Shown: positions 19,668 through 45,311 of the stretch, piece after piece
Layout of the letters: each line of letters starts with the position of its first letter
Numbering within the stretch: position 1 is the first letter of the stretch
Origin: Escherichia coli
Lineage (GTDB): Bacteria > Pseudomonadota > Gammaproteobacteria > Enterobacterales > Enterobacteriaceae
DNA length: 64,000 bases
Assembly (NCBI RefSeq): GCF_029227855.1
Contig: NZ_CP074356.1
Direction: 5' to 3' (one strand)
The notes under the pieces: generated by a model
Told to the model about the DNA's origin: nothing
The model's database searches: none
The model's input: the letters and a program-made list of their open reading frames with translations, nothing else
Position numbers and translations under genes: made by a program

Positions 19668-20549
19668 ATGACACGACAAAAAGCAACGCTCATAGGGCTA
19701 ATAGCGATCGTCCTGTGGAGCACGATGGTAGGATTGATTCGCGGTGTCAGTGAGGGGCTCGGCCCGGTCGGCGGTGCAGCTGCTATCTATTCATTAAGCG
19801 GGCTGCTGTTAATCTTCACGGTTGGATTTCCGCGTATTCGGCAGATCCCGAAAGGCTATTTACTTGCCGGGTGTCTGTTATTCGTCAGCTATGAAATCTG
19901 TCTGGCGCTTTCCTTAGGATATGCGGCGACCCGTCATCAGGCGATTGAAGTGGGTATGGTGAACTATCTGTGGCCCAGCCTGACAATTCTCTTTGCCATT
20001 CTGTTTAATGGTCAGAAAACCAACTGGCTGATTGTACCAGGATTATTATTAGCCCTGGTTGGCGTCTGCTGGGTGTTAGGTGGTGACAATGGGTTACATT
20101 ATGATGAAATCATCAATAATATCACCACCAGCCCATTGAGTTATTTCCTGGCGTTTATTGGTGCGTATATCTGGGCAGCCTATTGCACAGTAACGAATAA
20201 ATACGCACGCGGATTTAACGGAATTACCGTTTTTGTCCTACTAACGGGAGCAAGTCTGTGGGTTTACTATTTTCTCACGCCACAACCAGAAATGGTATTT
20301 AGCACGCCCGTCATGATTAAACTCACCTCTGCGGCATTTACCTTAGGATTTGCTTATGCTGCATGGAACGTCGGTATATTACATGGCAACGTCACCATTA
20401 TGGCGGTAGGTTCGTATTTTACGCCCGTCCTTTCCTCAGCGCTTGCAGCCGTGCTGCTCAGCGCCCCGCTGTCGTTCTCGTTCTGGCAAGGCGCGCTAAT
20501 GGTCTGCGGCGGTTCCCTGCTCTGCTGGCTGGCGACACGTCGTGGCTAA
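19668..20549 (+). CDS. yddG: Aromatic amino acid exporter (DMT superfamily)
   Basis: 293 aa, 10-TM EamA-like protein. Confidence 0.9.
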   Translation: MTRQKATLIGLIAIVLWSTMVGLIRGVSEGLGPVGGAAAIYSLSGLLLIFTVGFPRIRQIPKGYLLAGCLLFVSYEICLALSLGYAATRHQAIEVGMVNYLWPSLTILFAILFNGQKTNWLIVPGLLLALVGVCWVLGGDNGLHYDEIINNITTSPLSYFLAFIGAYIWAAYCTVTNKYARGFNGITVFVLLTGASLWVYYFLTPQPEMVFSTPVMIKLTSAAFTLGFAYAAWNVGILHGNVTIMAVGSYFTPVLSSALAAVLLSAPLSFSFWQGALMVCGGSLLCWLATRRG

Positions 20550-20807
20550 AATAATTGTCGGGTCTACGGCCCGGCAGTTAATCAGATAAATTCCGACAAT
20601 ATAAAAAAATAAATTTCAAATACCAGTAGTTCACCTTATATCTCATTTCGACTTCGATCACATATCGATAAATAATATTATTTCATCTATTTTTCTCATT
20701 GTTTTTAATCACCATTCTATTTTAAAAACAGTATGTCATTTATAAATGACGCCGTTTAAAATTCGTTTAGAAAATACGTTTAACGATAATTAAAAGGATT
20801 CTGTTAA

Positions 20808-21909
20808 ATGAAATTAAAAATAGTTGCGGTGGTTGTAACTGGTTTGTTAGCTGCGAACGTAGCACACGCTGCCGAAGTCTATAACAAGGATGGTAATAAA
20901 CTCGACCTTTATGGCAAGGTTACCGCTCTACGTTATTTTACTGATGATAAGCGTGACGATGGTGATAAAACTTATGCCCGTCTCGGCTTTAAAGGAGAAA
21001 CGCAAATCAATGATCAAATGATTGGTTTTGGTCACTGGGAATATGATTTTAAAGGCTATAACGATGAAGCCAACGGCTCGCGCGGTAACAAGACCCGTCT
21101 GGCCTATGCAGGTTTAAAAATTAGTGAATTTGGCTCTCTGGGACTATGGTCGTAACTACGGTGTCGGCTATGACATTGGTTCATGGACCGATATGTTGCC
21201 AGAATTTGGTGGCGATACCTGGAGTCAGAAAGATGTCTTCATGACATACCGTACTACCGGTGTGGCAACCTATCGCAACTACGATTTCTTCGGCTTAATT
21301 GAAGGTCTGAACTTTGCCGCGCAATATCAAGGCAAAAATGAACCCACTGACAATGGTCATCTTTATGGTGCTGACTACACGCGTGCCAATGGTGACGGTT
21401 TCGGTATCTCCTCAACTTATGTTTATGATGGCTTTGGTATCGGTGCGGTGTATACCAAATCCGATCGGACAAATGCGCAGGAAAGAGCCGCTGCTAATCC
21501 TCTCAATGCCTCCGGTAAGAATGCAGAACTGTGGGCTACAGGTATAAAATATGATGCCAACAACATCTACTTTGCAGCTAATTACGCTGAAACATTAAAC
21601 ATGACCACCTATGGCGATGGTTATATCTCTAACAAAGCACAAAGTTTTGAAGTAGTGGCACAATATCAATTCGACTTCGGCTTGCGCCCATCACTCGCTT
21701 ACCTGAAATCGAAAGGCAGAGATCTGGGCCGCTACGGCGACCAGGACATGATTGAGTATATCGACGTTGGTGCGACGTATTTCTTCAACAAAAATATGTC
21801 GACCTATGTTGATTATAAAATCAACCTGATTGATGAAAGCGACTTTACCCGTGCCGTAGATATTCGCACCGATAACATCGTCGCAACGGGCATTACCTAT
21901 CAGTTCTAA
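20808..21909 (+). pseudogene. OmpC/OmpN-family general porin, reading frame interrupted once (about 21145)
   Basis: Signal peptide, [16 protein letters not shown] start and C-terminal ...GITYQF typical of enterobacterial porins; split into 20808..21155 and 21124..21909 by one extra G in a G-run; this position holds a porin remnant (yddL) in K-12. Confidence 0.7.
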
Positions 21910-22072
21910 CATCCTCTCCTGACCAGCCCTTCTCTGGGCTGGTTTTTGATTTAAGTGCTGCTGTATGACTCCTTAAGTAAAAATGAGCAATTTTTGATAT
22001 TTCTGGTCATTCACCTCAATTAATATTATTCCATACCCTGCGGGGACATCTTACTATAATATTTATTGATGA

Positions 22073-39480: not shown

Positions 39481-40032
39481 CTATCTTCTTAGCGATGTCT
39501 TTCTGGTATCACATTGGGTCGGTGCAATTATTTTTCCTTTAATACCCATTATGTTAAGAAATTCAGAAACAGCTGTAATCTCATTGTTTTTTTCATTCGT
39601 CTTGATCTTCCAAGGAATCTGACTGTGCATTATTGAGAACACACTAATAACGTGAATCGCTCCCTTGCGACGACTCTTGTCATAAGAGTACCGGAGCGTT
39701 TTTCCATCAATTGCAATGACGTCTTTATCATCTGAAGAATGGCAGTCAAGCATCCAGTTAATAAAGCACTCATGAAATTTTTCAGGACTGATACAGGATA
39801 CAACTCTGGCAATGGTATCGTGAACAGGAATACCATTATCAAAATCACCATATTGCTTCAAAAAATCGAGATGTGTTTCCCCAAAATCCTCTATATCTTC
39901 CCAGCCTTCTGCACCCGAAATAATGGCACAAATAGTCAACAGTAGAATATCCGATAATTTATGTTCCACTTTCCAGGCTTGTCTGTAATCGGGGGTAATA
40001 GAAATATGTTCCATCAATTTTTTAAATTCCAT
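39481..40032 (-). pseudogene. H-repeat-associated (ISAs1-family) transposase, N-terminal fragment (183 codons), truncated at its junction with the cyclase island
   Basis: Near-identical over about 170 aa to the N-terminus of the full-length H-rpt ORF at 46075..47211, then diverges into a short unrelated tail. Confidence 0.7.
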
Positions 40033-40160
40033 TTTGTTCTCCTTAATTATGTAAGGAGTATTTGATCATGTATAAGCAATAAAAAACAGCTTTAGGTAAT
40101 GAGGAATATCTCAATTTTTAAACATAAAATGCGAATTATTTAGTACAAAAAAGCAGCGTT
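39481..40160 (-). repeat. Direct repeat copy A (H-rpt 5' region plus N-terminal coding part), paired with 46660..47340
   Basis: Matching strings include ccattttgttctccttaattatgtaaggagtatttgatcatgta and ctcaatttttaaacataaaatgcgaattatttagtacaaaaa. Confidence 0.6.
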
Positions 40161-40617: not shown

Positions 40618-41103
40618 TCATATTTTTAATATAGCCCCATGAGCTATAGGATCAAAACCTTCTAACCATGAGGTGTTTTTATCGAATAATGCACCTGTTA
40701 TATTTATATCGCCATATCTATCACATAATAAATTAGCGCCACATAAGTCAGCACCAGAAAAATTTGAATCTTTAACGTCTGCATTGCAAAAGGTTGAATT
40801 AGTTAATATAGCACCCTCAAAGTTTGCACCTATTGACCTTGAATTACTAAAGTCACTTCCAGTGAAATCTGAGTTATTAAGAATAGCGTTCATCAGAGCC
40901 GCATTGCGAAAGACAGCATTTCTAGTTGATGTATGTTGAATCATTACATTTCTTAAATGGGAATTTTCAAATTTCGCCCCATCAAGACAATAACCATTGA
41001 GGATGGCACGATGTAGATCCATCCCGCTAAAATCATATCCAGCAAGAGTGGTACTATCTATATCAAGAAATTTATTGGTTATTAAAAACGCGATTCTTAT
41101 CAT
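40618..41103 (-). CDS. Pentapeptide-repeat protein, putative immunity protein for the rhs2 C-terminal toxin
   Basis: 161 aa with about 20 tandem pentapeptide repeats ([25 protein letters not shown] ... [10 protein letters not shown]); start overlaps the rhs2 stop as ATGA. Confidence 0.6.
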
Positions 41104-44100
41104 CTATTCCCCCAATCATCTAACTCCGGAAAAATTTGGCTAAACGGATATAGTGGTGCCGATAATGGACGCGTACCTGGCCGCTCAGGAGGAAGTTTAT
41201 CACATAACAGACCCGCAACCATCCTGTGATTACCATTAACAATCACATTCCCATCCATATCAACCGGTGGTGCTCCACTACCATCTTCCAGCATTTGTAC
41301 GTAGTGAGCTACTACGGGTACTGAGACTTTTTGTTGTACTGTCAACAAGGGACTGTTGGCCACAACCATCCTGATGTTTTCAGGTGTCGCAGGTAAACAT
41401 TTAGTCTTCTCTTGACTAAAGGTATCATCCCACAATTTTGTTAAACCCATCACTGCCTGTTGTCTGTATTTATCCATGGGGTCAGCAATCAACCAAGATG
41501 GACCTGACTGCTCTATGGAATCTTCTCCGGAGAGACCCAACGGATCTATCTTAGTAGTTGGATTCAATGGATACTGATACAGGTTCCATGCACCTCTTAG
41601 CCCAATGGGATCCTGGGTGATATACCGCCCCTGCAACGGGTCATAGTACCGGTTGCGGTTATAGTACAGCCCCGACTCCTCATCATACTGCTGCCCCGGC
41701 AGACGGTACGGCTGTTGCAGTTGCTGCGCGCTGGTTTCGCCCAGCAGGTTTCCCCACTCGTCATACTCCCCCTGCCACGCCGTTTCCCCTACCGGGCTGA
41801 TGAGCGCCTGCGGCAGCCCCCGGTGGTCGCAGTGGTAAAGATGAAGTGTCCTCTCCGGGATGTATTCCGCCTCCATCTGGTTTTTCATCTGTTCCGCCGT
41901 CAGCCCGCACTGCTGAAGCCATGCCTCACTCTCCGCACTCACCGCACCCGCGCGCAGTTCCCGCTCCAGCCTCCCCAGCATCACCGACAGCTCCGCCGGT
42001 AGCGTCACCCCCGTGTCCTCCTGCAACACCTCCGCCAGACTCCGGTGCCGCGCCTTCGCCTGTTCACCATTCTCTGTTTCGATTCTGATGAGCGGCGTGA
42101 AGCTCCCCGGCTGGTATACCGTCTGGATACGCGTGGTGCCGGTCTGTACCGTCGTCAGCCTGTCACCGTCCCACCCGTACCAGGTCTCCTCCGGTTTACG
42201 CGACAGCGACATCCACCCCGTCAGGTCACGCTCCCGCCGCCACACCCGTTTCCCCGTCCGGCGGCCCAGCGGGTCATAGAGGTAGCGGCTCTCCACCTGT
42301 GGTTCGCCGTGCTGTATCCGCGTGTAGAACACCAGGCGGTGCTGGCTGTCGTAATGGTAGTGGTGGGTCCGCTCGTCGTGCATCCGGATAACCCCTTCCG
42401 GGATACGATCCGTCTTCTCCGCCAGCCTGCCGTATTCATCGTGGCGGTAGACATAGTGCGCATCCTCCGCGATGCGGTTATCCGGCCACGCCGTGAAGGT
42501 GCTGTCCGGGTGCAGTTCCGGGTCCGGCAGCCGGTTTCCTGCCGGGTCCGTCGCATACGGGATATCGATATCCAGGTTCGCCGCCGTGGTGTGAACGCCC
42601 GTCAGTCTTCCCGTGTCGCTGTAACGGTACTTCCGGCTCTCCTGCGGGCCGCTGATGCGCACCAGTTGCCCGTTATCGTTCCACGTATACTCACGGTCAA
42701 GCTGCGGAAGGTTCAGGTGCCTGCTCCGGAGCTGCCCTGTGAGGGTGTACGCCATGGCCTGTTCGTACCCCGCTGTACTGCCCGCCCCGCCGAAGCTGCG
42801 GGCCGTCTCACGGTGCAGCCGGTCCCGCGTGTACTCGACCAGCGGCGTTCCGCCCAGCTTCATCCCCGCAAGATAACCGCTGCCATACGTCAGCCACTCC
42901 ACCGGCGGCAGACCGTCCGGCTCCTGACGGGTCGCCAGCCCCTGTTCGCTGTAGACGTGCCTCGTCTCATGCTCCCACAGCATCTCCCCCGTCTCCTGGT
43001 TCTCCACCGTCTGCCGTTCGCCCGTCAGGCGGCCTTTATCGTCATAGCCGTAGTGGACCGCCACACGGTGGCCTTCGCTCAGGTGGCTGATTTCTGTCAG
43101 CCAGCCGTGGTCGTCATACTGCCACTGCTCCGCCGGGTCGCCGTTCACCGTCCGGTGCGTGATGCGCCCGGCGTCATCGTAGTACCACTGCGTGACCTGC
43201 CCCTCATCCTCGCTGCGGATGAGCTGCCCTGTGGCGCTGTACCGGTAACGCTGTGTCCTGCCGTCAAAGCCGCGCTGCTCCGTCAGCCTGTCCACCGGGT
43301 CATACCGGAACGTGGACTGGCTGCCGTTCTCGTTGGTCAGCACGGTGATGCGCCCGGCGGCGTCATACTCCATGCTGCGCGTCAGTCCGCCCTGCGTGGT
43401 GCTGACGGCCTTTCCCCACGCATCATACTGTGTCTCACTCCGGCTGCCGTTCGGGGCAATGATAGCGGTGAGGTCGCCTGCGGCGCTGTACTCATAACGG
43501 GTTTCACGTCCCTGCGCATCCTTCTGACTGACCAGTTGACCACGCGGGTTATAACTGCTGTAAGTGCTGATGCCTTCCTCCCGGTGAACCGCCGTCCTCT
43601 GACCGTACCGGTCGTATTCATACCGCGTCGTGTACCCTGAACAGTCCGTAAATGCCTGAAGCTGACCGTACCGGTTTCGCGTTATTCTCCGCCTCACCCC
43701 GGTTCCGTCTTCCACCGCACAGGGCAGGCCACTGCGGGAAGAATCATAAAACCAGCGCGTAATGTTACCGTTGCGCGAGACCTCTTCCGCCAGCCTGCCC
43801 TGACGGTCATATTTCCGGCTGCGGCGCAGCCCGTCCGGGTACGTCACTGACGTCAGTTGCAACTGGTTGTTGTAACCATACCGTACCGTCCTGCCGTCCG
43901 GCAGTATCACTGAAGTCAGCTTTCCCGACGCCATATGCAGCCGGTACTCCGTCCGCCGTCCCGCCGCATCCGTCTGCGCCTTCAGCCTCCCCGCCTCATC
44001 ATACTCGCTGCGGGTGATGCTCCCGTCCCCATGCTCCTTCTTCACCACCCGCTTCAGGCCGCCCTCGCCCTCCGTGTACAGCACCTCCCGCCGGTTCAGG

Positions 44101-45311
44101 CTGTCCGTGATGGTCACGCGGTCCTGCCCGTACTCAAAGCGGTAGTCCAGCCCCTCCGGGTTGACCTGCTCCGTCACCCGACCGGTATCATCATACCGGT
44201 AGCGGCTCTCCGGCCTCCCCGCATAATGGTGCGCCACCATCCGCCCGGCGTGCTCCGCATCATAAGTAAACCCGCGCACCTGCGTCCCGCTGCGGTCATA
44301 CACCGCCCGCAGTTCTCCGCTGGCCGTGTACGTGTAGCGCGCCAGCGGCGCAGTCGGCAGTTCATCCAGGTATGCCAGGTCGTGTGTCAGCCATACCGCC
44401 TCCAGCCGGATACCGTTATCGGCACCGTACTCTGTACCGGTGGGCAGCGTGTCGGGGAAAACCTGAGAAGAGGAAACAGAACGGGGACTGGCCGGAGAAG
44501 ATAAAGAAGAGGCGCGCTGTTTACGGAAGGCTTTCGCCCGCTGCGCCTGTGTGGTCAGCGCCAGATGAAAACGGCGGCCCGCGCCGTCCGTCACCCCCGT
44601 CACCGCGCCCGCCGCTTCCCCCTCTGCCGCCCGGTGGAAGGCCAGCGTCCGCCCGAAGCTGTCCACCACGCCCGTCAGCACCCGGTATGCGGGCGGCTCC
44701 GGCGGCAGCACCTCGTCCGCCTCCGGCACCCGCTCCGGCCAGCCGAGTATCCACCACGGCCCCTGAAGGCTGTTTGTCGCCAGGTACACATGCGGGCTTA
44801 AGCGGAGACTCTCCGGCAGCACCTGCCAGAGCGCGCTTAGCGGCTGCGAACTGTGCTGCTCCGCCACCCCGCCCCTTGCCAGCCAGAACGACTCGCTGCG
44901 GCTGTAGCTTATCTCGCCGGGAAACAGCGGCTCAAAGTGAATGCTCCTGCCGCCACTGTCGTTGAGTATCAGTTCCCGCTCATGAACCTGTAAGCGGATA
45001 TCGAAGGGCGCTTTCCAGCCGGGACCAAACACCCCCACCGGCGCGGGTGTTCTGGTCCGGTAGCTGCTGTAGGCGCGGGAAAGAATAAACGGCAACGGGC
45101 CGGGCAGCGCAAGATCCGTCTCGCCCGGCAGCACCTTCGCACCCAGTAGCGGGTTCACCGGGTTACCCTTCTGCTCCTCCACCGGGCTGTTGGGACACAC
45201 CGAGCAGGCCACTCCCGTCGGCGCACCTATCAGCACCCCCGCTGAACCCTGCACAATATCCAGTCCCTTGCGGGTCATATCGCCCTGTCGCGCCGCCGGT
45301 TTTCCGCTCAT
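41100..45311 (-). CDS. Full-length Rhs polymorphic toxin (PAAR-like N-terminus, YD-repeat shell, DPxGL cleavage motif, unassigned C-terminal tip)
   Basis: 1403 aa intact ORF; N-terminus [12 protein letters not shown]..; many YD repeats; ...[16 protein letters not shown]...IDPLGL followed by about 145 aa of sequence unrelated to rhs1. Confidence 0.9.
41500..45311 (-). repeat. Rhs core, direct repeat with the rhs1 core at 48540..52088
   Basis: Long near-identical protein stretches between the two rhs ORFs (e.g. [54 protein letters not shown] in both), same strand. Confidence 0.7.

Follow-up and report, generated by a model that had tools for sequence, protein, structure and literature searches.

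An otherwise complete OmpD-type porin gene on an Escherichia coli chromosome is split into two reading frames by a single extra G, and this base is most probably a local length error of sequencing or assembly and not the mark of a real gene loss. The gene lies in a stretch of 64,000 nucleotides (hereafter the window, i.e., the whole stretch of DNA that was analysed), an E. coli chromosomal segment with the gene order fdnGHI, yddG, porin, leucine-rich-repeat (LRR) genes, narU and narZYWV. The porin, its lesion and its immediate neighbours are as follows:

19668..20549, + strand, next gene upstream of the porin, yddG (EamA/DMT aromatic amino acid exporter)
20808..21909, + strand, complete porin gene of 1102 nt, one more than the 1101 nt of the intact allele (Porin_1 match)
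20808..20870, + strand, signal peptide of 21 aa (residue 22 is where the alignment with most mature PDB porin chains begins)
21140..21142, + strand, GGG run, which is GG in every other copy examined (alignment with the intact allele)
21153..21155, + strand, premature TAA stop in the shifted frame
21344, + strand, G>C transversion private to the window, Arg179Pro after repair of the frame (alignment)
21921..21954, + strand, terminator-like hairpin of 9 pairs, 6 of them G-C, followed by a T-rich tail (TTTGATTT)
22073..24660, + strand, AT-rich leucine-rich-repeat gene region, counterpart of yddK/yddJ

Two abutting ORFs are found on the + strand at the porin locus (20808-21155, 115 aa, and 21124-21909, 261 aa), and they share the Porin_1 profile between them (Pfam PF00267, gathering cut-off 23.7 bits), the first matching profile positions 1-84 (107.8 bits) and the second positions 85-337 of 337 (328.3 bits), which identifies the pair as one complete porin gene with a single change of frame. 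Aligned with the intact allele of the nearest genomes (WP_000768393.1, 366 aa, 1101 nt), the window porin shows one gap column (the extra G) and one substitution (G>C at 21344), and is otherwise identical. The frame shifts at codon 112, and the predicted product consists of 111 native residues followed by GLWS, with the shifted frame reading ...EFGSL-GLWS up to the TAA at 21153-21155, while the downstream frame is wholly open to the native stop. Deleting one G in silico gives a protein of 366 aa whose signal peptide ends in AHA, directly ahead of AEVYNK, and whose C-terminus is GITYQF; the PEFGGD constriction-loop motif is present in the repaired protein, and the combination of a cleavable signal peptide and a C-terminal Phe (...ITYQF) is that of a general porin. 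Thus, the preliminary description of this DNA, which had recognised a porin gene with a single extra G that is readable from signal peptide to C-terminal TYQF apart from the frame change, is borne out on both counts by the two Porin_1 halves, the single gap column and the 366-aa repaired frame. It had placed the insertion in a G-run near 21150; the additional G is indeed present in the sequence, but its site lies 8-10 nt upstream and the run comprises just three G. The terminator-like hairpin starts 12 nt past the porin stop codon, and in a promoter scan 5' of the porin, shuffled sequence matched at least as well.

No other copy examined shares the extra G. A 91-nt query with the run at its centre was matched in 1,117 genomes, all at 98.9% (90 record bases against 91 query bases), so that none of the 1,117 complete E. 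coli genomes carrying the stretch has the additional base and no 100% match to the query was obtained. Likewise, a 34-mer containing GGG had no match in the GTDB species representatives and none in metagenome contigs, where its GG version, used as a positive control, was found on 14 contigs. An exact-sequence look-up of the 115-aa fragment found none on record as a called protein, and one with the yddG variant of the window was equally negative.

The insertion is also not the only length difference in its surroundings. The nearest complete genome, JNEC-KY178, is 99.953% identical to the window over 64 kb, with 12 mismatches and 16 gap openings, and 15 of the 16 indel events that separate the two lie in 21140-32266. 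These 15 events are distributed over the genes of the region as follows:

21140..32266, no strand assigned, tract of 11.1 kb with all 15 window-private indel events (difference list against JNEC-KY178)
Porin, + strand, +G at 21140
LRR region, + strand, insertions of A at 22754 and of T at 24547, deletions of A at 24490 and at 24552
narU leader, deletions of C at 24921 and of T at 24930
24967..26351, + strand, narU, private 1-nt deletions at 25021, 25121, 25252 and 25522, with no substitution
26446..30182, + strand, narZ, private -GC at 29088, -A at 29182 and -C at 29717, leaving ORFs of 936, 152 and 140 aa
31723..32416, + strand, narW, private 2-nt deletion (-CA) at 32266, truncated to 194 aa

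The differences were polarised with two independent outgroups, CE2050 and MS14384, both of which agree with JNEC-KY178 at 15 of the 15 tract indel sites, and the indels are therefore derived in the window. Three are insertions and 12 are deletions, each of 1-2 bases, 14 of the 15 fall in mono- or dinucleotide runs, and their density within the tract reaches about 1.3 per kb. Such clustering is very improbable by chance (P of about 3e-10 for 15 uniformly placed events to span no more than 11.1 kb of 64 kb). Substitutions are few: three private ones are located in or next to the tract, i.e., 20167 T>A (Phe167Tyr in yddG), 21344 G>C and 27502 C>A, and all three are transversions, whereas the other 52 kb or so have four polarised private substitutions, of which three are transitions. 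The ratio to be expected is roughly one indel per ten substitutions. At that ratio, 15 indels against 3 substitutions in 20167-32266 have a P of about 6e-13, and even if indels are taken as a quarter of all mutations, P remains about 3e-7 for 15 of 18 private changes. The 5' segment of narU illustrates this imbalance, as four gaps (571 against 575 nt) and not a single mismatch separate it from its best match in 5,402 genomes, and narU, narZ and narW are all fragmented in the window only. Indel frequency in the tract rises with run length, a trend that fits replication slippage and sequencing error alike and does not separate them, and the Dcm or Dam motif contexts of the error sites, checked by eye, gave no consistent pattern.

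Isolated private transversions occur outside the indel tract too. At window position 1791, a private A>C transversion lies in dosP, and the 601-nt segment that contains it, present in 5,343 genomes, has a 100% match in none of them. Within the tract, the second LRR gene (23402-24657) corresponds to a 'leucine-rich repeat domain-containing protein' of 418 aa but is shortened to 368 aa by the private loss of an A at 24490, beyond which lie the +T at 24547 and the -A at 24552; in O157:H7, the corresponding gene carries the annotation T3SS effector EspR1. The sixteenth indel (44871) is a frameshift in JNEC-KY178 and not in the window: the RHS core gene at 41100-45311 (- strand) is intact in the window (1403 aa) and annotated as frameshifted in JNEC-KY178, whose copy is without one G (context CCCCGCCCC, window position 44871). 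The surrounding region of ISAs1, RHS and vgrG contains internal repeats (39482-40151 with 46660-47330, and 41599-43674 with 48383-50475, at 91% and 82% identity, respectively), and cross-matches to JNEC-KY178 show two RHS cassettes in tandem.

Given that no more than about one indel in 64 kb is to be expected between genomes about 1e-4 per site apart, a tract in which private indels are dense and confined to short runs, substitutions are few and conserved genes are broken points to an artefact rather than to gene decay, and we infer a technical origin for the indel cluster. Many length errors in sequence of low quality that extends over about 11-12 kb (from about 21.1 to 32.3 kb in the window) would account for the pattern, and this stretch might represent a single or unpolished long read, or one low-coverage clone. 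The extra G would then be one of many base-calling or assembly errors and would be absent from the DNA of the organism. A gene of 1.1 kb such as the porin should by itself collect about 1.5 indels at the density of the tract (about 1.3 per kb), and the observed insertion thus needs no further explanation. The preliminary description had left the choice between a recent inactivation and a sequencing error; owing to the absence of the insertion from all 1,117 genomes and its position in a cluster of 15 private indels within 11 kb that breaks narU, narZ and narW, we favour the latter.

Natural loss of this porin is nevertheless common and repeated in E. coli, and a real knockout would be unremarkable in itself. 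The porin segment was matched in 4,277 of the 5,426 complete RefSeq E. coli genomes, and 1,111 of the 4,277 (about a fifth of E. coli genomes) have the full-length porin, the gene being intact in about 1,110 of the 5,426. The remaining matches (about 3,170 genomes) consist of the first ~280 nt and the upstream region alone, annotated as 'yddL: porin'. K-12-type genomes match the window from 20600 to about 21085-21091, at about 99% identity, and in K-12 J53 the stub is a 276-nt incomplete porin pseudogene. K-12 yddL (b1472) occupies the same site, directly 3' of yddG, and keeps 276 nt, whereas the window has the whole 1.1-kb gene with one inserted base and one substitution. This agrees with the earlier remark that K-12 has a more degraded remnant here, as yddL is described as a 276-nt 5' fragment, i.e., an incomplete porin pseudogene (PMC3079680, PMC9976479); the annotations of the 96-aa yddL are conflicting (PMC9976479). 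One metagenome contig (L018, 622-1590) has unrelated sequence in place of the initial 223 nt of the gene, and a protein cluster of 57 members (P0014, 269 aa), in which 73% of the porin is matched at 100% identity, may be the same 5'-truncated form. Truncation from the 5' side thus looks like a second natural route of porin loss, beside the 3' deletion of the K-12 type. Where it is full length, the porin is under strong purifying selection, with pN/pS of 0.02-0.06 among intact alleles and 11 of 12 complete metagenomic copies intact.

Against this background, one could read the lesion as a real, isolated pseudogenisation, in which GG slipped to GGG (+1) in this strain only and the nearby indels are errors or unrelated. 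The lesion is, after all, present in the sequence as given, and porin loss is frequent in the species (a yddL stub in most genomes, and the 5'-truncated form). However, the insertion is restricted to one record, the gene is otherwise strongly constrained, and at a divergence of about 1e-4 per site, some 0.01-0.02 real private indels are to be expected in 1.1 kb, whereas the indel density of the tract alone predicts about 1.5 events over the same length. We therefore consider such a pseudogenisation highly improbable.

Another reading takes the whole 11-kb cluster as real, e.g., as a localised burst of frameshift mutagenesis in one long error-prone patch of repair synthesis. The 15 indels and three transversions are contiguous and derived in the window, as would be expected from a single patch, and it would also suit this reading that short mono- or dinucleotide runs hold 14 of these indels and are hit more often the longer they are. 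If true, the burst would have silenced the OmpD-type porin, the EspR1-like LRR gene, NarU and the NarZ/NarW nitrate reductase genes at once. Yet none of the changes is found in any other genome, an unpolished or low-coverage stretch of assembly is a simpler account of the same data, and no natural mechanism is known to us by which 11 kb would acquire about 1.3 indels per kb and hardly any substitutions, all of which renders a burst highly improbable. Two further candidates were rejected: a mismatch-repair mutator background, the signature of which is transitions, since the indels are local and not window-wide and the accompanying private substitutions are transversions, and import by recombination, since it would bring substitutions and narU has four gaps and no substitution.

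Regulated expression at the G run, be it by a phase-variable slipped-strand switch or by a programmed +1 ribosomal frameshift, is hardly credible, as even though the lesion falls within a mononucleotide run and nothing interrupts the downstream frame before the native stop, the run is just 3 nt, neither the long repeat tract nor the run-length polymorphism of a phase-variable contingency locus was found (GG is invariant in 1,117 genomes and 14 metagenome contigs, and the locus is not polymorphic), every other allele examined in full reads in one frame without a conserved shift site, the frame change is absent from the homologues checked in full, and no recognisable combination of slippery codon and stop motif was seen in 21140-21155.

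PGAP names the full-length gene 'porin OmpC', and the intact allele passes the NCBIfam OmpC subfamily model (NF007841) marginally (495.3 against a cut-off of 484), while it fails the equivalogs of OmpF (459.2 against 583) and PhoE (457.8 against 599). Matches to the solved structures of OmpK36, OmpC, OmpK37, OmpF and PhoE cover the full mature length (E-values of 1e-127 to 1e-100), with most PDB alignments running from residue 22 to the C-terminal Phe, and the OmpN-like OmpK37 scores about as OmpC and OmpK36 do. The window porin is thus alike over its full length to these trimeric 16-strand porins, but it is a separate paralogue, falling below the equivalog cut-offs of OmpF and PhoE and just above the OmpC subfamily cut-off. 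Among protein clusters, a porin of Citrobacter koseri (78% identity) is closer than the Salmonella 'porin OmpD' (P0034, 72% over 100% of the length), and the E. coli clusters named NmpC/Lc and OmpC reach 65-69% (NmpC/Lc about 67%). The label 'OmpN/OmpC-type' given in the preliminary description consequently holds at family level, where the OmpC subfamily cut-off is just passed, but the closest named relative by sequence identity and gene order appears to be Salmonella OmpD.

Salmonella enterica OmpD, an NmpC-type general porin, has the same Porin_1 architecture, and its surroundings follow the order of the window: fdnH and fdnG (- strand), a 293-aa EamA gene (+ strand), the porin (+ strand) and, later, narU and narZ. 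C. koseri has the arrangement seen around Salmonella OmpD, and the porin of the window is likewise located next to yddG, between fdnG and narU. Given these common flanks, it is the positional orthologue of Salmonella OmpD, and it is also the full-length form of yddL / z2239. The 3' sides differ: in Salmonella and C. koseri the porin is followed by GFA, MFS (- strand), TetR, a 462-464-aa MFS gene and a narZ-like gene, and where these loci (L024, L025, L026) carry GFA, the smvA-like MFS and TetR (GFA, smvA and smvR in Salmonella and Citrobacter), the E. coli window has the AT-rich LRR block, with a GC content of 34% in the LRR genes against 44% in the porin.

Neither the porin and its locus nor the K-12 remnant is new. 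O-island 62 of O157:H7, between yddG and narU, starts with the porin ORF z2239, which is followed by LRR ORFs, and K-12 yddL resembles the 5' end of z2239 (Okeke et al. 2011, PMC3079680). The yddG-narU island occurs in phylogroup D strains, O157 and O55, and the whole of O-island 62 has been treated as a recent acquisition (PMC3079680). The O157 allele of z2239 is about 98% identical to the porin described here and intact, and Okeke et al. 2011 was the sole paper brought up by a search for functional work on z2239, its locus tags included. As the porin is syntenic with those of Salmonella and Citrobacter, it seems to be ancestral at the yddG-narU site, and the imported part looks to be the LRR block only, with its GC content of 34%, which would refine the 'O-island 62' picture.

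The relevance of the extra G lies mainly in the quality control of sequence records. Taken at face value, this record adds a porin 'loss', with consequences for conclusions on antibiotic permeability and on phage receptors, together with losses of NarU and of nitrate reductase Z, and it is likely that none of the three is real. A modestly useful side result concerns the porin itself, as yddL and the 'O-island 62' porin are the E. coli counterpart of Salmonella OmpD, at a chromosomal site that is conserved.
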